Part shown: positions 1,501 to 25,673 of the stretch, in pieces
Numbering within the stretch: position 1 is the stretch's first letter
How the letters are laid out: every line of letters begins with the position of its first letter
Source of the DNA: a bacterium
GTDB taxonomy: Bacteria > Krumholzibacteriota > Krumholzibacteriia > JACNKJ01
Assembly (NCBI GenBank): GCA_014382085.1
Contig: JACNKJ010000218.1
Span: 1-32,153, forward strand
Direction of reading: 5' to 3'
Length of the DNA: 32,153 nt
The notes under the pieces: generated by a model
The model's input: only the letters and a program-made list of their open reading frames with translations
The model's database searches: none
What the model was told of the DNA's origin: nothing
Program-made: the position numbers and the translations under genes

Positions 1501-4173
1501 CTATTCACCTTCCCCCCTCAGTGAGTTCAAATATTGAACCCATCTCTCATCATCCCTCAATTCACCTAAAAGCGATTCGTTTTCGATCTTGGATCGCGGA
1601 TAGCCGGCCTCCACGCACTTCTTGAGCCATGATAAGGCATCATCGCGGTAGCCCATTTTCTCGTAGGTATGGCCAATTTGAAACATTACTTCGGCATTGC
1701 TGGAGTCGAGTCGCGCTAATTCCTCGAGTAGTTCGAGCGCGTTTTCGTCCTGGTCGAGAATGTGATAATAGCTGGCCAAACGTGACAAGAGAGCCGGTTC
1801 TCTCGGGGTAACAGTCCGTTGATCCTCACAAAGCTCAACAGCTCTGCGGATGGATATGACTCCTTGCTCAGAGGTTTCCTCGATGCGAAATTGCGCCGCC
1901 GCAAGGTTGCCCCAGAGACGATAGTCGTGACTGTGCAAAGCCAAAGCTCCGTTATAGTACTGTATCGCTTTTTCGTAGTCTTCATTCATGTAGTGGTAGG
2001 TGCCCAAGTTTGACAGCGCATCGTAGCTGGGCTTGATTTCGATGGATCGATTGAGCAATTCCGCAGCTTCTTCTCCGCGGCGCAGGTAGAGATAGACACC
2101 GGCCAGATCCGTGTAGCCACGGAAGTAATTCTGCGGGGTTAGTTCCTGCACCTGCTGAAACTCCGCGATGGCTTCTTCGAAGCGGAATTGATCCACATAG
2201 AACAGGCCCAGCTTCTGATGCCCCACCCAGTCATCGGGTCGAATCGCGATGGCCTGCTTCAAAATGGAATCGGCCTTTTCCGCATCGCCTCGCTTCGCAT
2301 AGCTATCGCCCAACTCACGCAATGCGCGGATATTGGAAGGATCTTCGGCCAAGGCCTGATCGAGCAGGGTCAAAGCATGGTCGCACTCTTCGATTTCACG
2401 GAAGATCACGGCCAGTGATATGCGTGCGTCCTGAAGTTCATCATCCAGAACGAGAGATCTCTCGCAATGAGTCACCGCTTTGGGAATCCACTCGTCCTGG
2501 CGGCTCCAGAGATAGCGTTGCCAGTAGGCTTCACCAAGTCCCAATTCGGCGAGGGCGTAATTGGGATCTTTCTCGATGGCCTGAACGAAGAACTCGATGG
2601 CCGTGTCCACCGCATCCAGTTTGGCGCGTCGCTGCAGGTAGTCGAGATCCTGCATGAAGCCAAGACCCTTGAGGTAGTACTCCTGCGCCAAGCTCACTTG
2701 AGTGAGGCCCGCTTCCAGCGCCAGCAGTTCCTCGGGACTGAGTTCAACTCGCAGCATTTCAATCAAAGCACCCAGGACGTCGGCCTGCAACACGGAAGCC
2801 TTGCTCACCGAATCTTCCAGCACGGCGGAATTCAAAGTGCGGTGACTGTCGGGGTCGGTGAGATTCAGCGTAAGGGTGATATCTCCATTGTCCCGCGCCA
2901 CGCTTCCCACCACGGCCAGGTTCACGCCGAACACCTGCCGCGCTTCCATGGGACTTGTGATCTCGCTTTTGCGAATGTCCGCCGCAGGCACCACCCAAAA
3001 TGCGTCGCGGAGTCCTTCGAGCTGAGTGAGTTTACTGCTCAAATACTCGTGCAGGCCGTCACCCAAGGCCTGGTTTTCGGGATCACCGCCGATGTTGGCG
3101 AAGGGCAGAATCGCAAGGTACTTGCGATCGGGAATGCCCTCGCCGCCACCTCGCAACCAGGAACTGCCGGGACCATCCAATGCCACCCAGGCCAGGATCA
3201 GGGTGAAGAAGGCGGCGGGCATCCATCGCTTCCAGGGTCGCCGTCTCGCGTCGGCAGGTAGCTTTGCGCCTCCGCCCACTGTGGCCAAATCGGCGCGCAA
3301 TTTATCCACGCTTTGATAGCGAAGTAGAGGATCTTTCTGCAGGCATCGCCTAAGAATGCCCGTGACCCCCGCGTCAAAGGCGCTGGCATCCCCCTGAAGG
3401 CCACGGGGTTCCATGTGACAGATGGCGTACATGACGCCGGGTTCGTGATCGCCCTGAAAGGCCTTCTGCCCCGTGAGCATTTCATAGAGCAGTGCGCCCA
3501 AGGACCAAACGTCGCTGCGACTGTCCACCGCTTCTCCGCGGGCCTGCTCGGGCGACATGTAGGCCGCCGTACCCACGGCCGCTCCAAGCTGTGTCAATTC
3601 CGGCGAGCCGCTTGTTTTGGCCAGTCCGAAGTCGGTGATAATGGCCTTGTTCGCGGGAGTGATCATGATGTTGCCGGGCTTGATGTCTCGATGAACCACA
3701 TTCTTGCCGTGGGCCTCACCCAAACCCTCGGCGATCTGTAAGGCGTAGCTCAAGGCCGCATTGCGGTCGAGGGGACCGTCCACCAGCAAATCTTTGAGGC
3801 TGCTTCCTTCGAGATAGGCCATGGAGATGTAGGTGTGGCCATCTACTTCATCGATCTCGTGTACGGTGCATATATTGGGATGGCTCAATGAAGCAGCCGC
3901 ACGGGCTTCGTTGAGAAAGCGAACGCGATCTTCGTCGTCGCTGAGGAGATGGCCGGACAGGAACTTCAAGGCTACTTCGCGCTGAAGCTTGGTGTCCTCG
4001 GCCCTATAGACGATACCCATGCCCCCTTCGCCTAGCAGCGAGAGGATTTGATAGTGGGCGACCGTCTTACCGATGAGATCCTGAGTCAATGGATGGAATC
4101 CTCTCCGGATCGCGGCGGGGATAAGCGAAATAGGTCCGAAATTATGGCTCACGGAGTCTAGCCGAGGGACCAT
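1501..4173 (-). CDS. Hanks-type Ser/Thr protein kinase with one TM helix, an extracytoplasmic domain and C-terminal TPR repeats
   Basis: Kinase motifs: GEGGMGIVYRA (G-loop), VALKFL (Lys), HRDIKPGNIMI (catalytic loop), DFGLAK, AYMSPEQ. TM segment WMPAAFFTLILAWVAL. A YLAILPFANIGGDPENQALGDGL domain is followed by multiple TPR-like repeats (AIEKDPNYALAELGLGEAYW, ALAEDPSNIRALRELGDSY, and others). Confidence 0.92.
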   Translation of the reverse strand: MVPRLDSVSHNFGPISLIPAAIRRGFHPLTQDLIGKTVAHYQILSLLGEGGMGIVYRAEDTKLQREVALKFLSGHLLSDDEDRVRFLNEARAAASLSHPNICTVHEIDEVDGHTYISMAYLEGSSLKDLLVDGPLDRNAALSYALQIAEGLGEAHGKNVVHRDIKPGNIMITPANKAIITDFGLAKTSGSPELTQLGAAVGTAAYMSPEQARGEAVDSRSDVWSLGALLYEMLTGQKAFQGDHEPGVMYAICHMEPRGLQGDASAFDAGVTGILRRCLQKDPLLRYQSVDKLRADLATVGGGAKLPADARRRPWKRWMPAAFFTLILAWVALDGPGSSWLRGGGEGIPDRKYLAILPFANIGGDPENQALGDGLHEYLSSKLTQLEGLRDAFWVVPAADIRKSEITSPMEARQVFGVNLAVVGSVARDNGDITLTLNLTDPDSHRTLNSAVLEDSVSKASVLQADVLGALIEMLRVELSPEELLALEAGLTQVSLAQEYYLKGLGFMQDLDYLQRRAKLDAVDTAIEFFVQAIEKDPNYALAELGLGEAYWQRYLWSRQDEWIPKAVTHCERSLVLDDELQDARISLAVIFREIEECDHALTLLDQALAEDPSNIRALRELGDSYAKRGDAEKADSILKQAIAIRPDDWVGHQKLGLFYVDQFRFEEAIAEFQQVQELTPQNYFRGYTDLAGVYLYLRRGEEAAELLNRSIEIKPSYDALSNLGTYHYMNEDYEKAIQYYNGALALHSHDYRLWGNLAAAQFRIEETSEQGVISIRRAVELCEDQRTVTPREPALLSRLASYYHILDQDENALELLEELARLDSSNAEVMFQIGHTYEKMGYRDDALSWLKKCVEAGYPRSKIENESLLGELRDDERWVQYLNSLRGEGE

Positions 4174-5437: not shown

Positions 5438-6397
5438 TTACTTCAAGAGCACCAAACGCTCTCGAGTTTGGCGGCCACCCGATTCGAGCGAAGCGAAATA
5501 GAGTCCCGCAGCAAGCGCATTACCGGCTTGGTCGCGGCCGTTCCAATCCACGGTGAATTCTCCCACCTGACCCTGCCCTTCAAACAAGGTTGCAACATGT
5601 CTTCCGGCGATGTCGTGGATGCGCAGGCTCACATGGCCGGCCACCTCGACTTTCGCACGCAACTGCGTATTGGGATTGAAGGGATTGGGATAGGCCCTTA
5701 ACTCAAATTTGCTGGCAGGCACCGCTGCGTCAGTGGGCAGAGTGGAAAGACAGTAGGCCATGTCTTGGGGAATCATGGTGAAGTTATCGATCGAGGTCCA
5801 TCGGGTGTATCCCCAATTCGCGGCGTCCAACCATGCGGGACAAGCGCCATAACTAACTTCCCATGGAGTGGCCACGATTCCCGTGAAGGGCTCCTGCGTT
5901 CCCCAAGAGATGAGAGCCGTGGCACCAATGGACATAAACTCCCCTACCTCAAGTGGAGGATCCAGGTGAACGCGCAGCTCATAGACCGTGCTACTGGTGT
6001 TATCGAATATGAGATCCTTGTCGAGATCGACCCAGGGCACCTCAACGGAATGGTAGGGAACCAGCTCCGGTGGACAGGCTTCATGGTAAAAGTTCAAACG
6101 AATGCCGTCGGGTTCGGTCCAGTAGGGTCCGCCACCGTAGTACCACTCTCCCAACCATAAGGTCACCGTGCTAATCAGCTCTCCGGTGAACTCCACAGGG
6201 ATATCATCGGCGATTTCCCCGTTTTGGCCCGACGACATCTGATAGATCATGCTGTAGTCGGGATCCTGGCAATAAATCACGTCACGCGCTTTGCCCGAGC
6301 CATCGAATTCGTTTGGTGGAGAAAAGAGAGGTATGGAATCAGCGAGCAGTGGGATCAGCAATAAAACGAGGACAAGACAAGACCTGGCAATAGACAT
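5438..6397 (-). CDS. Secreted protein with a T9SS-type (FlgD Ig-like / Por) C-terminal sorting domain; N-terminal domain unknown
   Basis: ORF track start 6409 is TTG. The ATG at 6395-6397 has GAGGTG 5 nt upstream and gives signal peptide MSIARSCLVLVLLLIPLLADS. The C-terminal ~85 aa read LRAYPNPFNPNTQLRAKVEVAGHVSLRIHDIAGRHVATLFEG...WNGRDQAGNALAAGLYFASLESGGRQTRERLVLLK, which is typical of this sorting tail. Confidence 0.8.
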   Translation of the reverse strand: MSIARSCLVLVLLLIPLLADSIPLFSPPNEFDGSGKARDVIYCQDPDYSMIYQMSSGQNGEIADDIPVEFTGELISTVTLWLGEWYYGGGPYWTEPDGIRLNFYHEACPPELVPYHSVEVPWVDLDKDLIFDNTSSTVYELRVHLDPPLEVGEFMSIGATALISWGTQEPFTGIVATPWEVSYGACPAWLDAANWGYTRWTSIDNFTMIPQDMAYCLSTLPTDAAVPASKFELRAYPNPFNPNTQLRAKVEVAGHVSLRIHDIAGRHVATLFEGQGQVGEFTVDWNGRDQAGNALAAGLYFASLESGGRQTRERLVLLK

Positions 6398-6459
6398 GGC
6401 GCACCTCAAGGTCGAATTGGGTGGATAACTCGAGGCGCAAGTTTATCATAATTATTGGC

Positions 6460-7278: not shown

Positions 7279-8010
7279 TTAACGATGTGAAAAGACCAAG
7301 TAGCCGAAAGCGCTCAGCAGAATGGCCAGCAAAATCGCCGTCCAAAGCGGCCCGTAGGTAATCATGATGGGTTCCATAAAGCCCTGCACCTGACCCCAAA
7401 CATCACTTCCCAATCCCGAGATGTTTCGTAGGACTTCTCCAAAACTTTGGGGCGGATTGAGCTTGAATCCATTTCCGCTGTTTTCCAGACCCATAGCCTT
7501 GGCAAGGACGAGAAGGAAAACGATGACCAATAATCCTGTGAACATGGGTGCACTTTTAGCGATCACAAGGCGCTTGGTTTGCCCACTATTGGGGGCCTTG
7601 GCACCGGGAAGGCTAGCTACGAGCTTTCTCGGAGATTCGCTCGCCCTCTTCAGCTCCATTCCCTTAAGTCGATTCAGAAAGATGAAGTGATCATGCCAGA
7701 TTTTGTCGAACTCATCGACATTCCAGGGCTCATCTTGGTCTTCGTGAGGAAGAGTGTGATGATCCTGGATCATCGACATGACGGCCTCCACCTTAAGGCA
7801 GATATCATCGTTTTGATCCAGGGGAAGGATGGAATTCAACCACTCGAGATCCACGGCCAACTTGCCCTTGAGTTTTAGAAATTCCTTCTCAGCCAAGGCG
7901 GTAAGAGTGTTCTTGCCTCCATAGCTAACGGCCAGCACGCGGAACTCAACCCAATGATTGAGAAGGCTCTTCATGCGCAATCGTGAACCGAAGGAGTTTA
8001 GAACTCGCAT
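7279..8010 (-). CDS. Hypothetical membrane protein (soluble N-terminal ~150 aa, two C-terminal TM helices) embedded in the T4P operon
   Basis: ATG with AGGAGA 6 nt upstream. TM candidates are MFTGLLVIVFLLVLAKAMG and GPLWTAILLAILLSAFGYLVF. No motif I recognise. It is 17 nt downstream of pilT and 39 nt upstream of pilD. Confidence 0.6.
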   Translation of the reverse strand: MRVLNSFGSRLRMKSLLNHWVEFRVLAVSYGGKNTLTALAEKEFLKLKGKLAVDLEWLNSILPLDQNDDICLKVEAVMSMIQDHHTLPHEDQDEPWNVDEFDKIWHDHFIFLNRLKGMELKRASESPRKLVASLPGAKAPNSGQTKRLVIAKSAPMFTGLLVIVFLLVLAKAMGLENSGNGFKLNPPQSFGEVLRNISGLGSDVWGQVQGFMEPIMITYGPLWTAILLAILLSAFGYLVFSHR

Positions 8011-10950: not shown

Positions 10951-11477
10951 TAGAGCTTCTCCAGCGGGTCGTAGATGGAGAGGGTCATCCTGGTTTCCAG
11001 ATTCCGATTATCCAAACCCGTATTGATCTTGATTTCATCTACTGTGACTAGACGAGTTCCGCTTTCGAGTGTCCTAATGAATTGAAGTGTTGGATCGAAG
11101 GGTCCATGCACCCTGAGAAAGAACTTGGTTTGGACAAGGTTCGTGGATTCGATGGCATCAACTGCTCTTAACTCCAATCGAACCAGATTCGTTTCTTCGA
11201 TGAGTTTGCCGAGAAATGCAGTTGGGTCTTCCTTAATGAGGGAAGAGGTTCGAAGTCCGTAGTGTTCGAGGTAGCCAAGTAGGCGGCGATTATCTCGCTC
11301 TGAGCTTTGTACTTGAGCCACTTGTCCAAGAAGCTCCATACGTTTGTTCTCAAGCGAGACCAGGCGTTTACTCTTGGGGGTGACAAGCGCCAAATCAACG
11401 GAAACACCCACCACAATAACGAGGAGGGCAATTGCCATGATCTTGGGAGTGATCAATTTCTTCAGATCATCAATCAC
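10950..11477 (-). CDS. pilO: PilO-like T4P alignment-complex protein
   Basis: N-terminal TM (IMAIALLVIVVGVSVDLAL), a coiled-coil, and a C-terminal ferredoxin-like segment (FFLRVHGPFDPTLQFIRTLESGTRLVTVDEIKI). GTG start overlaps the pilN TGA (GTGA). Confidence 0.7.
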   Translation of the reverse strand: MIDDLKKLITPKIMAIALLVIVVGVSVDLALVTPKSKRLVSLENKRMELLGQVAQVQSSERDNRRLLGYLEHYGLRTSSLIKEDPTAFLGKLIEETNLVRLELRAVDAIESTNLVQTKFFLRVHGPFDPTLQFIRTLESGTRLVTVDEIKINTGLDNRNLETRMTLSIYDPLEKL

Positions 11478-12031
11478 GATCCACCTTCCGAGTCATCGCC
11501 AAGGATTTGGAACCTAGTTCCGGATCCACCTCCAACACTCCCCAATCGGAGGCTGGAGAAATCGTTTGAAAGTCGCGGGTCCATTCGCAACATATCCACG
11601 AACTCTGTGAAAACGCTTATCTGAACGTCTTCATGGCCGGTCTCTCCGATGATCGCTAACTTCTTCTTAGTTTTTCCACGCTCAATAGCACCTTCGAATT
11701 CGACTATCTGAAGATCCTCGGTCAACATCTCTGACAGCATGGCGAGCTTTGGCGCCCAGTCGATTCGCTTTGATCGTATCTCAAGCATTTCTCGGGCGCT
11801 GACCAATTCCTGTTCCAAGGCAGACTGATTTTGAATGCGGTCGGTTTGATGGGAAACGATTTCAGATAGAGAAGCGACTCTGTCGTTAATCAGAAATGCG
11901 CTCATAATGAGCGACCCGATCGCTAACACGACGACCCCTGAAAAGGCGGCCAGGATACCGGTCTTGACAACACGTAAACGCGCTGTGTTTCGACGCTCGT
12001 TGAACTCCGGATACAGATTGATGCTAAACAT
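11474..12031 (-). CDS. pilN: PilN-like T4P alignment-complex protein
   Basis: Canonical PilN N-terminus MFSINLYPEF...RR, followed by TM GILAAFSGVVVLAIGSLIMSAFL and a coiled-coil. ORF track start 12067 adds 12 residues. The internal ATGs at 12040 and 12031 fit the family better. It overlaps the pilM stop (12024-12026). Confidence 0.75.
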   Translation of the reverse strand: MFSINLYPEFNERRNTARLRVVKTGILAAFSGVVVLAIGSLIMSAFLINDRVASLSEIVSHQTDRIQNQSALEQELVSAREMLEIRSKRIDWAPKLAMLSEMLTEDLQIVEFEGAIERGKTKKKLAIIGETGHEDVQISVFTEFVDMLRMDPRLSNDFSSLRLGSVGGGSGTRFQILGDDSEGGS

Positions 12032-14786
12032 GTGCAGCATCTCCCCAGCGGCACAGACCCATGGCATTCACATAACTGGAACCGTATCCGGCTATCTCCT
12101 TGCTTGCAGAATCTGACATTCGCAGCCCTTCAGTTGGGTCCAGTAGATGGACCGGCAACTTGATTCCCTCCTGAAGCTTTTCAGGTAAGCCTTCAAGGAG
12201 TGCCCCGCCACCGGACAGATAGATACCCGAAATGTCTTTCGAGTAGCGCTGACGATAGAAGAAAACTGTTTCCGCCATCTTGAGTTTGAGATTATCAATG
12301 AATCGATCCACTGTCTCTTCACTGGCCTTGGGGTTGGCTGCGCCAAAGCCTAGCTTTCGACTCAAAATTCCCCCCGTGTGACTTGTAATGTGAAGGGAGC
12401 TTTGCTTAAAACCGATATCAACAAGGCCAACGGCTTTGCTGGTATCAAAACCAGCGGGAAGGTTGGCAAAAAGTTGGTTAAGACCTGCAAGTAAGTCCAA
12501 ATCTAGAACTCGGGGCTCCAACCCGATTTTTGTGAGTACCCGCAGAGGGAAGTTCTTCGCATAGGTCGGCACCGCTACCAGAAGCACACGATTTAGACTC
12601 ACGCCATTTTCAACGAGTGCAGATGCCTCTCCGAGGATTTGAGCGGCAAGTACAGGACACTCCATAGACTCGATGTCCAGATGTGTTTTTGCTTCGAAGG
12701 GCAATGCCATCTGAAGATCTTTCTCGGACAAGGGCGCCATCTCAACTTCCCTGATGCTTGCATCTCGTCCACTGACTGATACGATTATCCTGCCCATGTT
12801 CCTTTTGTTCAGATCGTTTCGTTCCAGTATATTATTGAAAGCCTCAACGGCCCGCCGCTCCAGCTCTACTTCATCATTTCTGTTACTTGCGGGAGGTAGG
12901 TCTTCTTTGGCACAGATCATCACCTCTTCGAGGCGATCCTTACCCCTGCCATGCACTAGCTTAATACTGTTTGACCCGATATCGATACCGGTCCGCAGAT
13001 CTGTGGACCTGATCATCGCCCCCCCAAAACTGGGCTTCGCTCCAGAGAGCTTCCCTCTTGTCTTTTCTTCTTCTCTGTCAGACGCGCCTAACAAGGCTTT
13101 CTTCCTTGCGAAAAGCTGTCCAAAAGACTTTCGGCTCTTAGCTTGTTTCTTCTTCGGGGCGCCTTCCATGTTCTGGGAGGACTCAGCCTGCATAAGCTGT
13201 TGTATATCTTTACTTTGCGCCGAGATATCGGCAACCATCTCTTTAAGGACAGGCGACTTCTCTTGGTCATTCGTGTTCGAGGAAAGAGGTATTTTTTCCC
13301 GCTCTGTAGTCAATTCCTCCTGCTTTTCTTGACTAGCCCGACTGAACTCTTTTTTACCGATTGAGACTCTGCTATTGGACTCCTGTCCAGATTCGTCGGG
13401 GTTCTTTGTCAAAGGTTTGCTTAAATGATCATTAACTATCGACCCTGGGGCTTGACTGTTGTCTCTTGACACTTTTTCAATGCCCTTGCTTGCTTTAGAT
13501 TCAAGGGAATCAGACGAAGCCCTTGGCAGAGGTTCATTGGCACTGACATTAAGATTATTAGTACTGCTTGGGGCAGCTGGCGACTTAGCCGCCAAGTGAT
13601 CGGCCTCCGCACTTTCTCTTAGCCCTGGCGCCGAATCATTGCCTTGGTCGTTTGCTATAGTGCCACGCCGTAGGTTCTGATTTTCCTGATTTCTTCGAGC
13701 TTCTAGTTCACGCTCAATTCGCGCTTTTGCCTCAGCTTCAGCCTTAGACTTTTCCTCGGCTTTAGCCTTTGCCTTCGCCTCAGCTTTTGCCTTTGCCTCA
13801 TCTTCAGCCTTGGCCCTTGCTTCTGCCTCCGCTTCAGCCTTAGCCCTCGCCTCCTCCTCTGCCTTAGCTTTAGCCTTAGCTTCTTCTTCAGCCTTGGCCT
13901 TGGCTTCCGCTTCAGCTTTAGCCCTAGCCTCCGCTTCAGCTTTTGCCTTTGCTTCTGCCTCAGCTCTGGCCTCTGCTTCAGCTTTAGCCTTAGCCTCCGC
14001 CTCCGCTCTGGCTATAGCCTCAGCTTCAGCCTTAGCCCTGGCTTCCTCCTCAGCCTTGGCCTTGGCTTCCGCTTCAGCTTTAGCCCTAGCCTCTGCTTCA
14101 GCTTTAGCCCTAGCCTCTGCTTCAGCCTTAGCCCTGGCTCTCGCCTCCTCCTCAGCCTTAGCCTTTGCTTCAGCCCTGGCCCTCGCCTCTTCCACTGCCT
14201 TAGCTTTTGCCTTAGCTTCTTCTTCAGCCTTGGCCTTGGCCTTCGCCTCAGCCTTGGCCTTGGCTTCTGCCTCAGCCTTGGCCTTGGCTTCTGCCTCAGC
14301 TCTGGCCTTGGCTTCTGCCTCAGCTTTGGCCTTGGCCTCAGCTTCAGCTTCAGCTTTAGCCCTAGCCTCAGCCCTGGCCCTCGCCTCTGCCTCATCTCTA
14401 GCTCTAGCCTCGGCTTCAGCTTCAGCTTTAGCCTTTGCTTCTGCCTCAGCCTTGTCCTTGGCCTTGGCTTCTGCCTCAGCTCTGGCCTTTGCCTCCGCCT
14501 CAGCTTTGGCTCTCGCCTCAGCTTCAGCCTTGGCCCTTGCTTCTGCCTCAGCTCTGGCTTTAGCCTCAGCTTCTGCTTTGGCTTTTGCCTCTTCCTCTGC
14601 CTTGGCGTTGGCTTCAGCTTTTACCTTAGCCTGAACTTCAGCCTCAGCCTTAGCTTTTGCCTCTGCTTCAGCCTTGGCTTTCGCCTTAGCATCTGCTTTT
14701 TCTTTTGATTTGATTCGACGTTTTTCGAGGAGGTCGGCGAGGCTGCCAATGTCCAGCCGCTGACTTCGTTCACTGGTCTTTCGCAA
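12024..14786 (-). CDS. pilM: PilM (actin-like ATPase, C-terminal ~322 aa) fused to an N-terminal ~340-aa A/E/K/R repeat and a ~230-aa Ser/Asn/Gln/Lys-rich disordered linker
   Basis: C-terminal domain TGIDIGSNSIKLVHG...VGLVDIGFKQSSLHI...IYLSGGGALLEGL is PilM/FtsA-like, and the gene lies directly upstream of pilN. Residues ~27-366 consist almost only of A, E, K and R. TTG start at 14786 with AAGGAGG 8 nt upstream, and no in-frame stop anywhere in the ORF. Confidence 0.85.
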   Translation of the reverse strand: MRKTSERSQRLDIGSLADLLEKRRIKSKEKADAKAKAKAEAEAKAKAEAEVQAKVKAEANAKAEEEAKAKAEAEAKARAEAEARAKAEAEARAKAEAEAKARAEAEAKAKDKAEAEAKAKAEAEAEARARDEAEARARAEARAKAEAEAEAKAKAEAEAKARAEAEAKAKAEAEAKAKAEAKAKAKAEEEAKAKAKAVEEARARAEAKAKAEEEARARAKAEAEARAKAEAEARAKAEAEAKAKAEEEARAKAEAEAIARAEAEAKAKAEAEARAEAEAKAKAEAEARAKAEAEAKAKAEEEAKAKAKAEEEARAKAEAEAEARAKAEDEAKAKAEAKAKAKAEEKSKAEAEAKARIERELEARRNQENQNLRRGTIANDQGNDSAPGLRESAEADHLAAKSPAAPSSTNNLNVSANEPLPRASSDSLESKASKGIEKVSRDNSQAPGSIVNDHLSKPLTKNPDESGQESNSRVSIGKKEFSRASQEKQEELTTEREKIPLSSNTNDQEKSPVLKEMVADISAQSKDIQQLMQAESSQNMEGAPKKKQAKSRKSFGQLFARKKALLGASDREEEKTRGKLSGAKPSFGGAMIRSTDLRTGIDIGSNSIKLVHGRGKDRLEEVMICAKEDLPPASNRNDEVELERRAVEAFNNILERNDLNKRNMGRIIVSVSGRDASIREVEMAPLSEKDLQMALPFEAKTHLDIESMECPVLAAQILGEASALVENGVSLNRVLLVAVPTYAKNFPLRVLTKIGLEPRVLDLDLLAGLNQLFANLPAGFDTSKAVGLVDIGFKQSSLHITSHTGGILSRKLGFGAANPKASEETVDRFIDNLKLKMAETVFFYRQRYSKDISGIYLSGGGALLEGLPEKLQEGIKLPVHLLDPTEGLRMSDSASKEIAGYGSSYVNAMGLCRWGDAAHV
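13689..14708. repeat. About 1 kb in-frame degenerate tandem repeat (GCN-GAR-GCN-AAR type) encoding the A/E/K/R region of the PilM fusion
   Basis: Visible 6/12-nt periodicity (gcctcagcttcagccttagcc variants). The exact 43-mer cagccttggccttggcttccgcttcagctttagccctagcctc occurs at 13889-13931 and again at 14051-14093, an offset of 162 nt (54 codons). Confidence 0.9.
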
Positions 14787-14912
14787 GCAGCACCCCTCCT
14801 TGGGTCAAGCTGACTACCCATAGCATTGTCTCGCGATTAATCGACCAATGCCTATGTGGGCAATAACAAGGAGAGCTCATCCGTGGCAGCACCTTGTCGC
14901 AATTCATATTCC

Positions 14913-19391: not shown

Positions 19392-21122
19392 TTATTCGTC
19401 GCTGAGGCAAACCCGCAGGATTTCTTCGGGCGTGGTCACTTGCTGAAGGGCCTTATCAATGCCTTTTCGTTTCAATGTTTTCATGCCTTGACTCACAGCT
19501 AGTTCACGGACTTCCCCCGCAGGGCGGTTTTCTGCAACCAAGCGCCGAAGCTGTGGAGTCATGACCATCTTTTCAATAATCGCGACTCGCCCGAAATAGC
19601 CTCGACCCTTGCAGGCCGGACATCCCTTCCCCTTAACAAACTGAGGAGTCTTTTCGCTTTCGCTGATTTCGGGCATATCGCTTATGGCCAACATCACTTC
19701 GTCGGCAGGCACATACTCGGTAAGACAATGAGGACAGTTTTGGCGGATGAGCCTTTGCGCTGCCACCAGGCTCAGGGCACTCGCCGTCATGAAGGGCTCG
19801 CTGCCCATGGAAACAAGACGTGTCGCCGTGGTGGGTGCGTCATTTGCGTGAATGGTGCTGAAAACCATATGACCGGTCAGCGCCGCGCGAATGGATATGT
19901 CCGCGGTCTCACCATCTCGAATTTCTCCCACCATGATCACGTCGGGGTCCTGGCGCAAGAAAGCGCGAAGTGCGTTGGCGAAACTCACATCTTTCCGGTT
20001 GTTCACCTGAACCTGGTTGATGCGATCCATCTGATATTCAACAGGATCCTCAACGGTTGTTATGTTCAACGTTTCGTTCCGGAGCTCAAGAAGGCTTGAG
20101 TAAAGGGTGGTGGTTTTACCCGAACCCGTCGGCCCCGAGAGAAGAATCATTCCGTAGGGCTGATGGATTACCCTTTGGAAGTCATCCAGGTCTTCCTTGG
20201 ACAAGCCAAGGTCGACCAGAGAGAAATTGAAATTGGTCTTGTCCAAGAGTCGCATGACGATTTTCTCGCCATGAACGGTGGGAATGGACGAGACACGAAT
20301 GTCCACGTCCTGGTTGCCAGTGCGCAGCGAGAATCGACCATCTTGGGCGGTCCTGCGTTCGGCGATATCCATGTTTGAGAGAATCTTAATGCGGCTGATC
20401 GTACCCGTGTAAACGGCATGAGGAGGCTTCAAGGCATCGTAGAGGAGGCCGTCCACGCGATATCGAATAACCAATGCCTTTTCTTGCGGCTCGATGTGGA
20501 TGTCCGTGGCACGCTCCTGTAGCGCCTGGGCGATCATCTGATCGACGAGGTTTACAATACCGGCGTCTTCCGCTCGGCGCGTCGCCTCTTCTTCATCGGG
20601 ATCCTCCTCGATGAAGGAAACGCCGCCCACCTCGCTCACCACCTGATCAATGAGGTTGGTCAGGTTTTTGGATCGTTCAATTTTCCGGTAACTGACGTTA
20701 CGAAGTTCGCTGATTTCCTGGGGAAGTGCGAGGACGACCTTAACACCCCTGCCCACCTTGTCCGCAAAGTTCGTAAGGTGATCGAGAGCCTGAACATCCA
20801 CCGGATAGGTCATGGCCACGAGCATGTGATCGTCGGTAAAGTCCAAGGGCAGGACATTGTGCCTACGAGCGAATTCGATAGGAACTAGCTCAAGCGCTTC
20901 GTTCTCGATATTGGCCTGTGTCGGATTGAATCGTTCGAATTCAAGATGCTTGGCCATGACCGTGAGGAGATCCTTCTCACTGATCAATCCGCGCTCAAGG
21001 AGAACGTCCGCAAGTTGATGCTTGGCGTCTGCTTGTTCCACGAATATTTCGATGAGAACACTGGGTTCGATCATTCCCTCTCGAACGAGAATGTCACCCA
21101 GTTCGGGTACGCTAATAGGCAT
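19392..21122 (-). CDS. pilB: T4P assembly ATPase (GspE/PilB family)
   Basis: Walker A LSGPTGSGKTTTLY, Asp box ITTVEDPVEY, Walker B VIMVGEIRD, His box GHMVFSTIHANDA, and a tetracysteine motif CPHC...CPAC. ORF track start 21254 is TTG and adds an Arg-rich 44 aa. The ATG at 21120-21122 gives a family-typical MPISVPELGDILVREGMI N-terminus. Confidence 0.92.
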   Translation of the reverse strand: MPISVPELGDILVREGMIEPSVLIEIFVEQADAKHQLADVLLERGLISEKDLLTVMAKHLEFERFNPTQANIENEALELVPIEFARRHNVLPLDFTDDHMLVAMTYPVDVQALDHLTNFADKVGRGVKVVLALPQEISELRNVSYRKIERSKNLTNLIDQVVSEVGGVSFIEEDPDEEEATRRAEDAGIVNLVDQMIAQALQERATDIHIEPQEKALVIRYRVDGLLYDALKPPHAVYTGTISRIKILSNMDIAERRTAQDGRFSLRTGNQDVDIRVSSIPTVHGEKIVMRLLDKTNFNFSLVDLGLSKEDLDDFQRVIHQPYGMILLSGPTGSGKTTTLYSSLLELRNETLNITTVEDPVEYQMDRINQVQVNNRKDVSFANALRAFLRQDPDVIMVGEIRDGETADISIRAALTGHMVFSTIHANDAPTTATRLVSMGSEPFMTASALSLVAAQRLIRQNCPHCLTEYVPADEVMLAISDMPEISESEKTPQFVKGKGCPACKGRGYFGRVAIIEKMVMTPQLRRLVAENRPAGEVRELAVSQGMKTLKRKGIDKALQQVTTPEEILRVCLSDE

Positions 21123-21580
21123 GGGGAACCTCTGCTTCGAAGCCTTAGAATGCGACCGATGCGTCCTTGCCCAGTGCATCCGCGGAATTGGCTGCATAAG
21201 GCATGCCCTCGCCGATTCTCTCAAAACGGGTCTATCGGTCCGATTCGACCTCAAACTGTCTTTCCGTGGACTACGCTTTCTCAGAGTTCAGGAAGCAAAG
21301 TTGAAGATTCTTTTTCCATCATTATAGATGGAAGTTCTCGCAGTTTTTGGGCAGCACGAGGCACTCTGGTGACGCATAGAATTCGTAAAAAACTCAAGCA
21401 TGTCTTAGAAGGACTCCATCCTCGATCGGATATCGACCAATTCCGACCGGGAACTGTGCGGCGGGGAATTTTTTCCCGTCCAGCTTTGGGTATTTCGTAT
21501 AGCCCTGATATTACGTCGTTTACATTTTCACAATAACATTCGGGCCTCTTAAACGTTTTCCACTATCATGCGTCAAACCC

Positions 21581-22159
21581 ATGGAGACCGAATTGAGCCG
21601 AATCGACGACATGCAGGAGAAAGAGTTGATTCAGCGCTTCCAAGGAGGCGAGTCATGGGCATTCGACAGACTCATGGAAAAACATCAGAAGCGAGTCTAC
21701 CGAATCGCCCTTGGCATGCTGGGAGATCACGACTCAGCCGCCGACATTGTCCAGGAAGTCTTCATTCGGGCATTTCGCTCTTTGAAGAAGTTTCGCCGGG
21801 ATTCGAGCCTCAGCACATGGTTGCATCGAATCACCGTGAACCTCTGCATCGGGGAAATCCGAAAGCGAAAAGTGAGAAATCATCTATCTCTCGCCGGCTT
21901 CACGGAACGTTTGAGATCCCCTATCGGACGGCCCGCCAAGGATCTGGACCGCAAGGACGATCGGCAGCGCATTCAAAGAGCGGTGAAAAAACTTCCGGCA
22001 AGGCAACGAGCGATTTTCGTTATGCGTCACGATGAAGAATTGAGTCATGTGGAAATCGCCGAAGTCTTAAAATTGAGCGAAGGCGCCGTGAGAGCCAGCT
22101 ATTTCCACGCCTTGAAAAAATTGAGAGAGGAGTTGGGTGATCATGAACAGGACCAATAA
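21581..22159 (+). CDS. ECF-type RNA polymerase sigma factor (sigma-70 family, group 4)
   Basis: Region 2 is RVYRIALGMLGDHDSAADIVQEVFIRAFRSL...WLHRITVNLC. Region 4 is LPARQRAIFVMRHDEELSHVEIAEVLKLSEGAVRASYFHALKKLRE. Confidence 0.9.
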   Translation: METELSRIDDMQEKELIQRFQGGESWAFDRLMEKHQKRVYRIALGMLGDHDSAADIVQEVFIRAFRSLKKFRRDSSLSTWLHRITVNLCIGEIRKRKVRNHLSLAGFTERLRSPIGRPAKDLDRKDDRQRIQRAVKKLPARQRAIFVMRHDEELSHVEIAEVLKLSEGAVRASYFHALKKLREELGDHEQDQ

Positions 22160-22724
22160 GCACAAGCCCGATTCCTTCACCTGCAACGAGGCACAGTCCT
22201 ACCTGCCCGACTACTTGGACAAAAGCCTGAATCAGTCCCGGCATCTCGGACTGGAAGCTCATTTGAAAGAGTGCGCCTCCTGCCGCCTAGAATTGGATGA
22301 GCTCAGGAAAACTCTCGGCCTATTAAAACTCCGCAGCCTGGAGGAACCTCAAGACGCTTTCTTCCGCGATTTGCGCGGTCAGGTTCATCGAAAGATCGCA
22401 GCACGACGTCGCTGGACCCTAAGTGATCTGGCGCCCAAACCTGCCCTTTCGCCAGTATTTGCGGCTGCCGCCATGCTGCTTTTCCTCCTGCTCTGGTGGA
22501 CTCTACCCAATGCACAAAAGGGTACCGAACTACAGCCCTTCCTCGCTCAGATCGAGCAGGAAGCCACGAACAGCTTAATGGACTTAAGCCTGGATCTGGC
22601 CGGTGGGGCGACGGAGATCATCGACGATCTTCTGCCTTCTGCCGGCAGCGATAAGCTAATCGCCAATCTCAGCGAGTCCGAGCTCGAAAGACTCGCCGAG
22701 CGTTTGGAGGCAATCATGGGGTGA
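22137..22724 (+). CDS. Anti-sigma factor with a zinc-finger (zf-HC2 / ZAS-type) N-terminus and one TM helix
   Basis: FTCNEAQSYLPDYLD...HLKECASC is a HxxxCxxC motif. TM VFAAAAMLLFLLLWW. It overlaps the sigma gene. The start is GTG at 22137 or ATG at 22143. Its TGA overlaps the next start (GTGA). Confidence 0.8.
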   Translation: MIMNRTNKHKPDSFTCNEAQSYLPDYLDKSLNQSRHLGLEAHLKECASCRLELDELRKTLGLLKLRSLEEPQDAFFRDLRGQVHRKIAARRRWTLSDLAPKPALSPVFAAAAMLLFLLLWWTLPNAQKGTELQPFLAQIEQEATNSLMDLSLDLAGGATEIIDDLLPSAGSDKLIANLSESELERLAERLEAIMG

Positions 22725-23542
22725 CGAAACTGCATTGGACAAGCACGGAACGGCACGGTCTTTTGACCGCAGCCCTTATAGCCGCCTTGCTCCTCAGCCT
22801 ACTCCTAGCACCCGAGGCATTCGCATTGAAAGCGAGCCACCGGCAGCAGGTGAAGCAAAAGATCAACAAGGTTAAATCCTGGGAAATGACCAAGGAATTG
22901 GGTCTTGACGATGAACAGGCCCGCATCTTCTTCCCGGCCATGGAAAGCTACGAGAACGATCGTGACATGTTGAGCGAGGAAAGAGGCGATATTGAAGCCA
23001 CCCTCGACAGTCTTCTCGCTGATGGCGGTCCGAGGGCGGATGCTGAGATTCTCAAGAACCTTGAGCGTTTGCGTATCATTGAAAGACAGCAAACGGCCCA
23101 CGAAGAGGAGTATCAGCGGAAACTGGGGCGCATTCTTTCTCCCCAGCAAAGAGCCCGCTACGAACTTTTCGAACGCGATTTTGAAGTGCGCCTTCGCCAG
23201 ATGATCCGCGAGATCCAGGACGAAGAAAGTGGACAGAGTCGAAGTTCAAAATCAGAAAGTGGAAAATTGAAAAAAGCGCCCGAGCGCAAAGAACAAGACA
23301 ACGAAAAGCGCGAAGTGAAAAAAAAGTCCAGCGATCGAAAGACCAAGACCGAAGACAAGAAGAAAGACAAGTCCGAGGGTGACAATGATACCCGAAATTC
23401 CAAGTCGCATACGGGGGACAAGGATAAGGACGAGTCCGGTAAAAAGAAGAGTTCCGATGAGCGATCCTCTCGCGGCAAGAGGTCGAGCAGGGATTCTGAG
23501 CAACGGACCGAAGGTCCTTTGGCGCCGCGGAGAGGAGTATAG
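22721..23542 (+). CDS. Exported Spy/CpxP-like (LTXXQ-type) helical protein with a Lys/Asp/Ser-rich C-terminal tail
   Basis: Signal peptide ...LLLAPEAFA|LKA. Helical repeats ELGLDDEQARIFFPAMESY and ILSPQQRARYELFERDFEVRLRQMI. The tail reads KKSSDRKTKTEDKKKDKSEGDND... Confidence 0.6.
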   Translation: MTKLHWTSTERHGLLTAALIAALLLSLLLAPEAFALKASHRQQVKQKINKVKSWEMTKELGLDDEQARIFFPAMESYENDRDMLSEERGDIEATLDSLLADGGPRADAEILKNLERLRIIERQQTAHEEEYQRKLGRILSPQQRARYELFERDFEVRLRQMIREIQDEESGQSRSSKSESGKLKKAPERKEQDNEKREVKKKSSDRKTKTEDKKKDKSEGDNDTRNSKSHTGDKDKDESGKKKSSDERSSRGKRSSRDSEQRTEGPLAPRRGV

Positions 23543-23545
23543 GAC

Positions 23546-24460
23546 ATGAAAATGAAATACGGATTGATTGGAATGCTCTCCGTCCTGTTGCTCATCGGGG
23601 CCTGCCGTGTGCACGACCCTTGCGACGATTGCTACGATCCCCCGGCTCCCAGCGGAGTTTGGACGATCACCGGTGATGACTATGTGGAGATCCTCTGGGA
23701 TCACGTCTACATCCACGACCTTGACGGCTACCGCATCTACCGCAGTTTCCAGGAATTCGGAGAGTACGAACAGATCGGCTGGAGCTATGACAATTACTTC
23801 GAAGATGATGAGGTAACCAACGGTTTCACCTACTTCTACGCCATTACCGCCGTGGACGACTACGGTAACGAAAGTGATCTCAGTTACGAGTCCATTTTCG
23901 ATACGCCGCGGCCCGAGGGATGGGATCTCGAAGTCGGTGACTACGACGAAACCGCCGGTGTGGACTTCTCAGGCTACTATCGTCACATGGTTCAGCCCTG
24001 GGACGCCTGGGACACCGACATGTACCTGTTCTGGGATGAAGATGACGGCAGCTACGCTTTCGCCAGTACCGACGTGGAATTCGAGGAGGAAATCATCGGC
24101 ACCGACATTCAGTACGCCGGTTATGTGGACACCCTCGACGAACTCGATTGGGCACCCGCGGACGGATGGACCTTGGAAACCGCTGACGTTGTGAACCTCT
24201 ACGAGGGACACGCCTACTGGGTTTGGACCTGGGACAATCACTTCGCCAAATTCCGCGTCACCTACATCGGCGAACACTATGTGGTCATCGACTGGGCTTA
24301 CCAGATCGACGAGGGCAATCCCGAGCTGGTGGTCATCGCGGGCAACGGAAGCGGCACGAGCAGCTTCAAGGCAGCCCGACCCGATGGCTCAATGAAATTC
24401 GATCCGACATCGCGCGAAAAACGTGCGAGTACAGTAAATACCTTGGCCGGAGGGAGGTAG
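23546..24460 (+). CDS. Acidic lipoprotein with a fibronectin type III-like domain
   Basis: Lipobox LLLIGAC. Fn3-like segment WTITGDDYVEILWDHVYIHDLDGYRIYRS...GFTYFYAITAVDDYGNES. GAGAGGAG lies upstream of the ATG. Confidence 0.65.
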   Translation: MKMKYGLIGMLSVLLLIGACRVHDPCDDCYDPPAPSGVWTITGDDYVEILWDHVYIHDLDGYRIYRSFQEFGEYEQIGWSYDNYFEDDEVTNGFTYFYAITAVDDYGNESDLSYESIFDTPRPEGWDLEVGDYDETAGVDFSGYYRHMVQPWDAWDTDMYLFWDEDDGSYAFASTDVEFEEEIIGTDIQYAGYVDTLDELDWAPADGWTLETADVVNLYEGHAYWVWTWDNHFAKFRVTYIGEHYVVIDWAYQIDEGNPELVVIAGNGSGTSSFKAARPDGSMKFDPTSREKRASTVNTLAGGR

Positions 24461-24464
24461 GGCC

Positions 24465-25673
24465 ATGCGTATTCCCATCATCATCACCGTTCTGTCGATC
24501 GTCTTCGCTTCGACCGCGCCCCCGGTTCAGGGCGTGGAAAGTGTGGGAGACTATCCGGTGGATAAACTGGCCGTGGAGCTCTGGTTCGATGAAGCTCGCG
24601 GATCGGTCTACGAACCGGGTGAAAGCGTGGAAGTGTTCTTCAAGGTTAGTCACGACTGTTACGTGGTGGTCTACGACGTGGACACTCAAGGATTCGTCAA
24701 CGTGCTTTATCCCAGGGGAGAACAGAATTCCTGGGTCGAAAGTGACCGGATCAAGAGTATTCCCAGCGCCTATGACGACTACGATCTACTCGTGGAAGGC
24801 CCCAAGGGCATCGAGTATGTGATCGCGGTGGCATCCCCCTATCCCCTGAACATCGGCAGTCTCTACGCCGAAGAGGAATGGGAAGACGGCTATCAATATT
24901 CAGGCCGCATCGCCGGTGATCCCAACGAGGCCATCTACGAACTCAACGACCGTCTGGCCTGGGGCTCCAGCGCATACTCCCCGGAGGGCTACTCCAGCGA
25001 CATCGGCTGGTTTTACGTTGAACGCGAAGTCCCCTATCCGCGCTACATCGTCTACCACGAGTATCCCGACCGATTCTGGGATCCCTACTGGGACCCCTAC
25101 GTGGAAGTGGATTTCTTCGTGGACTACCACTGGAATCACAATTGGTGCCGCCCCTGGTGGTGGTGCCACGGTTGCCGACCCGTGCACGACTACTGGTACG
25201 TGAGTGTGGGCGGAGTTCGGGTGAAGTGGAAGCACTGGCATCATCACGATAGCTATCATCCCGAGTGGCGGCGCGTGAAGCCCCCCCGATGGGACGGCAG
25301 GTGGCGCGAAGCCCGGGTCAAGGCATACAAAGACCAGGATCGCCGCTACAAGGAAAGTCGATCCACTTGGGATGACCGGGAACGTCAGAGCAAGGAAATT
25401 TACAAGGGTGATCGCCAGATCAAACAGAAGGACTATCGCGAGCGCAGCGCCCCCAAACGGGTGGAAAATAAGGCGGATCGAAAGCGCATCGAGAAGAAGT
25501 CCGACAGTGTGAAGGACAGCAAACGGGACAAGAAGGAAAGTAAGCCCAAGGTGAAGGAGAAGAAGCCCACCAAAAAGGCGGAGCCGAAGAAGAAGTCCGA
25601 ACCTAAGGAAAAATCCGAGCCCAAGAAAAAAGACAAAAAGGAAAACAAGGATAAGCGCCCCCGTAAGCGCTAA
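24465..25673 (+). CDS. Exported DUF4384-like protein with a Trp/His-rich middle segment and a Lys-rich tail
   Basis: Signal peptide MRIPIIITVLSIVFASTAPPVQG. YEPGESVEVFFKVSHDCYVVVYDVDTQGFVNVLYPRGE...GPKGIEYVIAVASPYPL matches my recollection of the DUF4384 pattern. GGAGGGAGG lies upstream of the ATG. Confidence 0.6.
   Translation: MRIPIIITVLSIVFASTAPPVQGVESVGDYPVDKLAVELWFDEARGSVYEPGESVEVFFKVSHDCYVVVYDVDTQGFVNVLYPRGEQNSWVESDRIKSIPSAYDDYDLLVEGPKGIEYVIAVASPYPLNIGSLYAEEEWEDGYQYSGRIAGDPNEAIYELNDRLAWGSSAYSPEGYSSDIGWFYVEREVPYPRYIVYHEYPDRFWDPYWDPYVEVDFFVDYHWNHNWCRPWWWCHGCRPVHDYWYVSVGGVRVKWKHWHHHDSYHPEWRRVKPPRWDGRWREARVKAYKDQDRRYKESRSTWDDRERQSKEIYKGDRQIKQKDYRERSAPKRVENKADRKRIEKKSDSVKDSKRDKKESKPKVKEKKPTKKAEPKKKSEPKEKSEPKKKDKKENKDKRPRKR

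Follow-up and report, generated by a model that had tools for sequence, protein, structure and literature searches.

An extended PilM with a predicted charged-helix arm in a Krumholzibacteriota pilus cluster: a possible cytoplasmic tether

What would a pilus assembly protein that is elsewhere a single domain do with several hundred additional residues at its N-terminus? The question is raised by contig JACNKJ010000218.1 (assembly GCA_014382085.1) of a Krumholzibacteriota bacterium, a stretch of 32,153 nt that we refer to as the window, in which the gene for PilM occupies positions 12024–14786 of the minus strand and encodes 920 amino acids. PilM rings are viewed as compact cytoplasmic platforms that PilN anchors to the membrane and with which the PilB and PilT motors make contact. 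Our best reading of this gene, to which we give a probability of about one half, is that it encodes a PilM with a four-part N-terminal arm, which serves on the PilM ring as a semi-rigid tether or spacer in the cytoplasm and bears a docking peptide at the tip.

The open reading frame (ORF) begins with a TTG codon and ends with a stop codon at 12024–12026. A Shine-Dalgarno site, AGGAGG, lies 8 nt 5' of the start (14795–14800, minus strand), and an in-frame TGA at 14807–14805 closes the frame just upstream. The first element on the minus strand is a basic head peptide, residues 1–25 (MRKTSERSQRLDIGSLADLLEKRRI, 14712–14786), which is delimited by conservation, by the ratio of nonsynonymous to synonymous substitution rates (dN/dS) and by AlphaFold2. 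It is followed by a charged (Ala-X)n repeat with the octad AEAEA[K/R]A[K/R] (residues 26–365, 13692–14711), recognized from composition and periodicity, and by a disordered linker rich in Ser, Lys, Glu, Asn and Gln (residues 372–590, 13017–13673), recognized from the AlphaFold2 confidence score pLDDT, dN/dS and length. The linker contains a short motif with the core GxLFAR (residues 550–563, KSRKSFGQLFARKK, 13098–13139). The PilM actin-like ATPase domain itself takes up residues 591–920 (12027–13016), as indicated by PF11104, PDB matches, fold and dN/dS, and opens with an internal ATG codon for M591 (13014–13016), the ancestral PilM start and a possible secondary initiation site. In composition, residues 27–366 are 44% Ala, 25% Glu, 19% Lys and 8% Arg, together 96%, while residues 367–597 are rich in Ser, Ala, Lys and Glu. 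The original prediction had laid out the gene in this way, from TTG start and Shine-Dalgarno site through A/E/K/R repeat and linker to PilM and the internal ATG, and each of these elements is where it had been placed.

Is the C-terminal part really PilM? The Pfam model PilM_2 (PF11104) matches residues 600–818 with E = 3.4e-18 (66.1 bits against a gathering score of 27), the NCBIfam PilM model TIGR01175 gives E = 8e-25 at 87.5 bits, which is under its strict cut-off of 133, and the last 335 residues match the PilM chains 3jc8, 5eox and 5eou of the PDB by sequence. When the predicted structure of the orthologue P0001 (see below) was compared with the PDB by Foldseek, the ten best matches were all PilM, with E-values from 4e-23 to 4e-18 and target TM-scores of 0.63–0.75; the top ones came from P. 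aeruginosa, T. thermophilus and M. xanthus, and FtsA followed. The gene also has the expected company, with pilN/pilO-like, secretin and pilus ATPase genes alongside on the same strand. By hidden Markov model (HMM), fold and context, the window protein is a divergent but genuine PilM. With canonical type IVa PilM (5EOX/5EOU, 2YCH, 3JC8) it shares the actin/FtsA-like fold, the PilM HMMs and a gene cluster of the order pilB-pilC-pilins-pilM-N-O-(P)-Q-pilT-pilD. In one respect only does it depart from what is expected of the family: canonical PilM is a single domain of about 350 aa and nothing else, whereas here 590 residues precede the domain, and identity to characterized PilMs is 18–23%. One detail of the domain concerns the window alone, where residue 709 is Cys (ESMECPV, codon 12660–12662); every relative, including the near-identical L011–L013, has Arg at this position (ESMERPV), and the Cys is either a strain-specific substitution or a base error.

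Two other identities were considered and rejected. On the repeat, and only there (residues 23–145 and elsewhere, all within 23–368), the NCBIfam TolA model TIGR02794 exceeds its cut-off of 59.45 bits with a score of 80.8, which means that automated annotation can mislabel PilM proteins of this kind as TolA. TolA is defined by an N-terminal transmembrane helix with an SHLS motif, by domain III and by a tol-pal context (PMC12204202), and the window protein has none of these, so that the match is compositional. Specifically, the extension contains no Ser-His dipeptide and hence no SHLS-type motif, no tolQRB or pal gene is found among the neighbours of pilM, which are pilus genes, and no transmembrane segment is found in residues 1–596, where the maximum 19-aa Kyte-Doolittle mean is 0.005. 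The second candidate, a fusion of the GspL type, fails because the protein ends with the PilM domain, pilN is a separate gene downstream, and the extension is N-terminal without a transmembrane segment.

The next question is whether the extension belongs to the gene at all. Orthologous loci, which we number L001 and upwards, fall into seven lineages: the window with L011–L013; L001–L005; L006; L008; L009; L016/L017 together with a JGI contig; and L010. The last is known from its first 71 codons only, which leaves six lineages with the full length. L008 and L009 are two metagenome-assembled genomes, P0002 is the L006 protein, and P0001 is the protein of L001–L005, which is found on 11 contigs from several samples. 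The same architecture is seen throughout, with proteins of 838–944 aa in L006, L008, L009, L011 and L016 and of 590 aa in L001, although the PilM domains of these lineages are only 62–93% identical. The sequence CCCAAGGAGGGG followed by TTG is kept in all seven lineages. Substitution patterns agree with a translated N-terminus: dN/dS is 0.03–0.10 for codons 1–32, 0.14 at the end of the helix, 0.24–0.50 in the 40 codons before M591 and 0.055–0.13 in the PilM domain, with dS of about 1 between the window and L006. As far as sequence comparison can tell, the arm is translated and conserved, and the fusion is genuine, one gene encoding one long protein. The prediction that the fusion is real is therefore borne out by the shared architecture, TTG start and Shine-Dalgarno site of seven lineages and by purifying selection on the N-terminus. 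The window ORF was found in the protein collection neither in its 920-aa nor in its 330-aa form.

The repeat invites a simpler suspicion, namely that pilM and the low-complexity stretch are separate ORFs, run together by misassembly or by a gene call that read through. One observation in this direction comes from L011, a 330-kb contig that represents an independent assembly of the same strain group as the window. Its pilM (L011 3153–5987) encodes 944 aa against 920 aa, and the two repeats differ by one residue and by one extra 24-aa (72-nt) unit, ARARDEAEARARAEARAKAEAEAE, which falls at about 14300–14420 of the window. In addition, three contigs (L012, L013 and L017) break off within the repeat. 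Because of these two facts the copy number of the window repeat may be off by about one unit, but there is no doubt about a long repeat as such. Its DNA is degenerate, with a longest exact direct repeat of 44 nt, all 55-mers unique and the Ala, Glu and Lys codons mixed, and for these reasons the repeat is not a DNA-level artefact. Moreover, at least eight independent assemblies from different projects agree in a continuous frame, in the start and in how the parts are ordered, and purifying selection acts on the arm at both of its ends. We can all but discount an artefact of assembly or annotation. As a side effect of the low-complexity DNA, long ORFs occur over the repeat in other frames and on the opposite strand, at 13810–14634 on the plus strand (for example a 274-aa ORF of the type ALASAS...) and at 14012–14395 on the minus strand; these are by-products and not genes.

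What kind of sequence is the repeat? It is more regular than the A/E/K/R composition originally pointed out would suggest. One of its two alternating phases has Ala at 149–150 of 165–170 positions and the other at none. The non-Ala phase runs acid-acid-base-base with period 8, as reflected in a charge autocorrelation of −0.71 at lag 4 and +0.59 at lag 8. Of the charge pairs at i/i+4, 138–141 are opposite and 17–19 alike, and the repeat as a whole carries a net charge of 0 to −3. In the window protein we count 21 copies of the octad AEAEA[KR]A[KR] and 11 of its 16-mer form. Seen as a helix the repeat has a hydrophobic moment of 0.05, i.e., essentially no amphipathicity; seen as a strand the value is 0.87, which is maximal. 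The repeat measures 340 aa in the window, 364 in L011, 317 in L006, 258 in L008, 320 in L009, 305 in L016 and 34 in L001, and in all of these the Ala-X register is unbroken.

A largely neutral origin of such a sequence must be considered: slippage of units of 24–72 nt could have produced a tolerated low-complexity spacer, in which case only the PilM domain, and perhaps the short motifs, would matter. Tandem periods of 24, 48 and 72 nt can indeed be detected in the DNA, and the copy number varies, from 258 to 364 aa between lineages and also between the two assemblies of one strain group. The collapse to 34 aa in L001 likewise came without visible damage to the core pil genes. This reading has difficulty with how the repeat has diverged. 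Between the window and L006 the proportion of synonymous differences (pS) is 0.81 and that of nonsynonymous differences (pN) is 0.14, so that the amino-acid pattern has been held, with mixed codons, while the DNA has diverged to saturation. Ala-X register, charge balance and i/i+4 pairing are kept in every long-repeat lineage, down to 62% identity of the PilM domain, and six of the seven lineages retain at least 258 residues. Finally, the head peptide beyond the repeat is no less conserved than the PilM domain, which would be odd if the repeat connecting the two were irrelevant. On balance we regard neutral expansion as unlikely; because the pattern of the rod is conserved at saturated synonymous divergence, the rod probably matters.

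The same length data bear on the suggestion, made in the original prediction, that the arm acts as a ruler. A ruler of fixed length does not fit repeats of 258–364 aa in different lineages, a difference of 24 aa between assemblies of the same strain group, and only 34 aa in L001; because repeat length varies in this way, a precise fixed-length ruler is unlikely.

The conformation of the repeat can be assessed from its charge pattern and from structure prediction. For the window protein AlphaFold2 gives helices at residues 16–175 and 186–371 with pLDDT 70–85, disorder at 374–592 (pLDDT <50) and a PilM domain with pLDDT ~90. For the short orthologue P0001 of the L001 lineage it gives one helix at 13–90, disorder at 95–261 and then PilM. 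The alignment available to the prediction over the arm consisted of three sequences only. Since opposite charges stand at i+4 throughout, with no hydrophobic seam and a net charge of about 0, the repeat is predicted to fold as a stable single alpha-helix. A straight helix of 340–356 residues would measure about 51–53 nm, and the earlier figure of about 50 nm is correct arithmetic for a straight helix.

How does such a rod compare with known ones? Single alpha-helix (SAH, or ER/K) domains, as in myosins VI and X, INCENP and the KER region of CAF-1, share with the window repeat the dense opposite charges at i/i+4, the lack of a hydrophobic seam and a predicted long helix that links two functional regions of the protein. 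In classical SAH domains there is little besides E, K and R, whereas the window repeat is 44% Ala, with Ala at every second residue; at 258–364 residues, repeats of the window type are also far longer than characterized SAH domains, and they are known here from prediction. SAH domains serve as spacers, levers and springs, and a role as linker or constant-force spring is on record for single alpha-helices (PMC5378345, PMC4183817). TolA domain II is, like the window repeat, a long helical spacer rich in Ala, Glu and Lys; TolA is periplasmic, however, and the window protein cytoplasmic. The likeness to charged single alpha-helices that had been noted from the letters alone is upheld by the i/i+4 pairing, the low alpha moment and the AlphaFold2 helix, and the likeness to TolA domain II holds in composition. 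To our knowledge the window repeat is among the longest and most regular natural (Ala-X)n charged repeats.

The alternation of the repeat points to a second conformation. Its octad is the motif of EAK16-II (AEAEAKAKAEAEAKAK), with the same strict hydrophobic/charged alternation and the same --++ pattern. EAK16-II derives from yeast zuotin, and the free 16-mer assembles into beta-sheet fibrils of high stability (PMC2387071). It is therefore conceivable that the (AEAEAKAK)n repeats stack as self-assembling sheets and glue PilM subunits or neighbouring pilus bases together, perhaps switchably. The 21 octads and 11 16-mers with their perfect alternation are what such a sheet would need, as is a beta moment of 0.87 against 0.05 for alpha, and EAK16 forms its very stable sheets and nanofibres at neutral pH and can switch to helix (PMC2387071). 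EAK16, however, is a free 16-mer in vitro, whereas the window motif spans ~340 residues of a bacterial cytoplasmic protein and is predicted to be helical. AlphaFold2 returns a helix for the long and for the short orthologue, i/i+4 pairing is a stabilizer of long single helices, and an aggregation-prone sheet-former of 340 residues on each PilM subunit would be hazardous in the cytoplasm. The zuotin segment behind EAK16 is itself helical in the native protein, which also counts against the sheet. We consider this explanation highly improbable. The window repeat nevertheless offers a natural test case of whether EAK16-type sequences are single helices or sheet-formers in vivo, and a rod that did change from helix to sheet and back would mean that a motif otherwise known only from biomaterials is put to use in nature.

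The strongest indication of a function for the arm comes from its tip. The first 12 residues, RKTxERSQRLD, are invariant in the seven lineages save for S/N and E/D exchanges, and this although the PilM domains are only 62–68% identical. Of the first 12 codons, 7 show synonymous changes when the window is compared with L008, which places the constraint at the protein level. The head peptide is at least as well conserved as the PilM domain. Its net charge is +5, and AlphaFold2 leaves residues 1–15 unstructured, with the helix starting at about residue 16. A degenerate DNA pattern for the head peptide identified one further locus of this kind, L010. We asked whether the peptide could mimic the PilN N-terminus in the groove of PilM and found no support for the idea: aligned by eye, RLDIGSLADLLEKRR and SINLYPEFNERR are identical at only 3 of 12 positions, with no Pro, and in the AlphaFold2 model the peptide leads into the helix and does not appear docked.

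At the other end of the rod, the linker is 201–236 aa long in every lineage and poorly conserved in sequence. Its dN/dS is 0.42–0.74, yet the frame is open in every lineage despite a dS of ~1.2. The GxLFAR motif lies ~30 residues ahead of the PilM domain and is kept in all six full-length lineages.

It is conceivable that head peptide and GxLFAR motif each form an amphipathic helix that binds the membrane, in which case the rod would lie along the inner face of the membrane as a strut that spaces pilus bases, and would not project into the cytoplasm. The hydrophobic moment of GxLFAR, 0.40–0.74, is in the range of the membrane-targeting helices of MinD and FtsA, its mean hydrophobicity is similar to theirs, and FtsA, which is the structural cousin of PilM and its next-best fold match, is established to use such a helix. 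The net charge of +5 on the head peptide also counts in favour of this, and three distant relatives (P0065, P0078 and P0173, described below) have true transmembrane domains N-terminal to the PilM domain. However, AlphaFold2 shows no helix at GxLFAR and gives it low confidence, the basic flanks of the motif are lost in L016, and the highest hydrophobic moment of the head peptide sits in a very polar stretch with a mean hydrophobicity of −0.85. A membrane-hugging strut is accordingly very unlikely in our estimate.

We favour instead the tether or spacer, which is more economical than the other readings. In the cytoplasmic ring, every PilM subunit would bear a rod, semi-rigid and ~40–55 nm long, on a flexible leash, and the head peptide at the far end would most likely dock onto a specific partner, since the tip peptide is so strongly conserved. 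The arm could then tether the pilus base to something tens of nanometres off, or keep a partner within reach of the base, and its bulk could keep the zone around the base clear. It would be a tether or spacer and not a precise ruler because the length of the arm is not tightly set. A similar logic is found in ZipA, where a docking or anchoring element is followed by a charged region and then joined through a long flexible linker to a globular domain. FtsA, the nearest fold to the PilM domain outside PilM itself, resembles PilM also in binding short N-terminal peptides of membrane partners. ZipA and FtsA differ in belonging to the divisome and not to a pilus, there is no homology in the arm, and the PilM arm is without a transmembrane anchor.

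The one concrete candidate for the partner is encoded in the same operon. The gene orf243 (7279–8010, minus strand), between pilT and the prepilin peptidase gene, encodes a soluble N-terminal domain of ~150 aa followed by two transmembrane helices; basic residues precede the first helix, from which the N-terminal domain is inferred to be cytoplasmic. The protein is restricted to this clade: among 5.8 billion proteins only 5 clusters were found, all of them from here, and no Pfam, NCBIfam or PDB match was obtained even with a profile. At every locus with a repeat of at least 258 aa orf243 is intact. In L001 (15798–16048) it is a pseudogene, with the N-terminal 140 codons deleted, a frameshift and an in-frame stop, and this decay is confined to L001, the sole lineage with a 34-aa repeat. 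Judged from this co-occurrence orf243 is a candidate partner of the PilM arm, and only a lead. A more ambitious version would have head, rod, leash and orf243 form a previously unknown accessory module that couples the ring over ~50 nm to a second membrane site or to neighbouring machines, possibly with a rod that switches between helix and sheet; this we regard as quite unlikely.

Several observations weigh against the tether. The association with orf243 amounts to a single evolutionary event in one lineage, and the decay of the gene could be coincidental. In the same lineage, L001, which in addition to its 34-aa repeat has a linker shorter by 46 aa, the pil cluster is otherwise intact (the other pil genes are 73–97% identical to those of the window), and because of this the long rod must be dispensable at least there. 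When residues 1–120 were used as a query they matched only generic AEK-rich tails, such as those of S16, IF-2, TolA and Pal; such tails occur on many unrelated proteins, as neutral expansion would also have it. AlphaFold2 shows no docking of the head peptide onto PilM, and residues 1–12 are of low confidence. The confidence of the helix is moderate as well, with a low-confidence break at residues 176–185, and because of this break the predicted rod may possibly be a hairpin of about 25 nm.

A further alternative concerns not the arm but its absence from some of the molecules. The original prediction had pointed to the internal ATG at 13014–13016 and the G-rich run upstream of it, which are present as described (GGGGGGG, 2 nt 5' of M591). 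The gene could thus yield two isoforms, the 920-aa form and a canonical PilM of ~330 aa starting at M591, with the short form building the ring and the long form being minor or regulated, a view compatible with a tether or spacer. All lineages conserve M591, and in L007, the next relative, which has no extension, the gene does start there. A G-rich run precedes it in most lineages, as GGGGGGG in 4 of 6 and as GGGAG with a 4-nt spacer in L016. However, the run comes within 1–2 nt of the ATG in most lineages, while at genuine starts AAGGAGG stands 8 nt 5', and in L001 the run is reduced to GGGG. The run is also constrained by the Gly-Gly codons that it forms, and the 40 residues ahead of M591 are conserved as protein. 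Promoter-like sites inside pilM are not enriched, since a search of the ORF for internal promoters and terminators gave counts not above those in shuffled sequence. We consider two isoforms doubtful, though worth keeping in mind. At the main start, the 126-nt spacer between the pilin-like gene and pilM (14787–14912, minus strand) is highly similar in the window, L006 and L001, well past the Shine-Dalgarno site; within it no promoter-like site was found on the pilM strand and no Rfam match, and an Rfam scan of the window as a whole gave no match either. One protein encoded beside the cluster has a sorting domain of the type IX secretion kind, which hints that the host may belong to the FCB group, yet genes of this host use strong Shine-Dalgarno sites.

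How widespread is the extension? In L007, which is 51% identical, pilM has no extension: its start codon corresponds to M591 and is preceded, 8 nt 5', by AAGGAGG, and the stop codon of the preceding gene lies 17 nt 5' of the start. An exhaustive HMMER search of 1.84 billion representatives returned 43 proteins at E <1e-30, most of them 312–330 aa long; a first metagenome scan with the PilM alignment had found nothing. Because L007 starts at the M591 equivalent and most close representatives are of this short length, the N-terminal extension is lineage-specific. Extensions of another kind occur in distant members of the subfamily. P0065 and P0078 (37–38% identity), both among the 43, have the PilM-like domain behind a major facilitator superfamily (MFS) transporter and then Pro-rich repeats, and P0173 (29% identity, E = 3.7e-13) has transmembrane and Pro-rich segments ahead of it. 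These proteins share with the window protein a PilM-like domain of the same subfamily and a long N-terminal extension that ends in a basic or Pro-rich linker; they differ in that the extension consists of MFS-type or other transmembrane domains and Pro-rich repeats and not of a charged helix. The Pro-rich repeats of the group are of the type EIDTxPPP and KPEVP, and P0065 (L019 6001–8865) is an orphan gene outside any pil cluster, with no adjoining pilN or pilO.

A full-text literature search found no description of a PilM with such an arm, with an N-terminal extension or with a single helix, in agreement with the earlier remark that no type IV pilus system was known whose PilM is extended in this way. 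Since full-text searches gave no such report, a PilM arm of this kind is previously undescribed. If the tether is real, the machinery of some pili extends a long way into the cytoplasm or beside the membrane, perhaps in order to find, hold or exclude something, and a rod of ~50 nm with a leash of ~225 residues and an invariant tip would be a new type of connection in a well-studied nanomachine.

The cluster in which the gene lies is compact and type IVa-like. On one strand it contains, in order, PilB with an MshEN domain, PilC, three pilin-like genes with a DUF4900 gene, the extended PilM, PilN- and PilO-like genes, a GspC/PilP-like gene, a small secretin, PilT, orf243 and the prepilin peptidase gene. 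The MshEN domain of PilB is of the cyclic di-GMP type. The PilN-like gene (11474–12031, minus strand, 185 aa), which is assigned from its N-terminus MFSINLYPEF, one transmembrane helix and synteny, overlaps the end of pilM by 8 nt. The PilN of canonical clusters has a conserved cytoplasmic INLLP peptide at its N-terminus; here the sequence reads SINLYPE, which is similar to that peptide but not identical. The PilO-like assignment is based on a weak T2SSM_b match. The PilB-like ORF (19392–21254, minus strand) is 620 aa long from its first TTG, while the L001 and L006 orthologues are called at 576 aa, and its true start is probably further downstream.

The genes that flank the cluster do so in conserved synteny and are possible regulators of it. 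Divergent from pilB, at 21568–25673 on the plus strand, are a zf-HC2 anti-sigma-like gene and a gene for a DUF4384 protein, and in L001 and L006 an extracytoplasmic function (ECF) sigma factor adjoins the zf-HC2 gene. On the other flank lies a Ser/Thr kinase with TPR repeats (1501–4173, minus strand), which in L011 (13838–19749) is followed by a GAF-SpoIIE phosphatase and a STAS protein. Adjoining the pil cluster there is also a gene (5438–6409, minus strand) for a protein with FlgD-Ig and C-terminal sorting domains of the type IX secretion system (T9SS) type.

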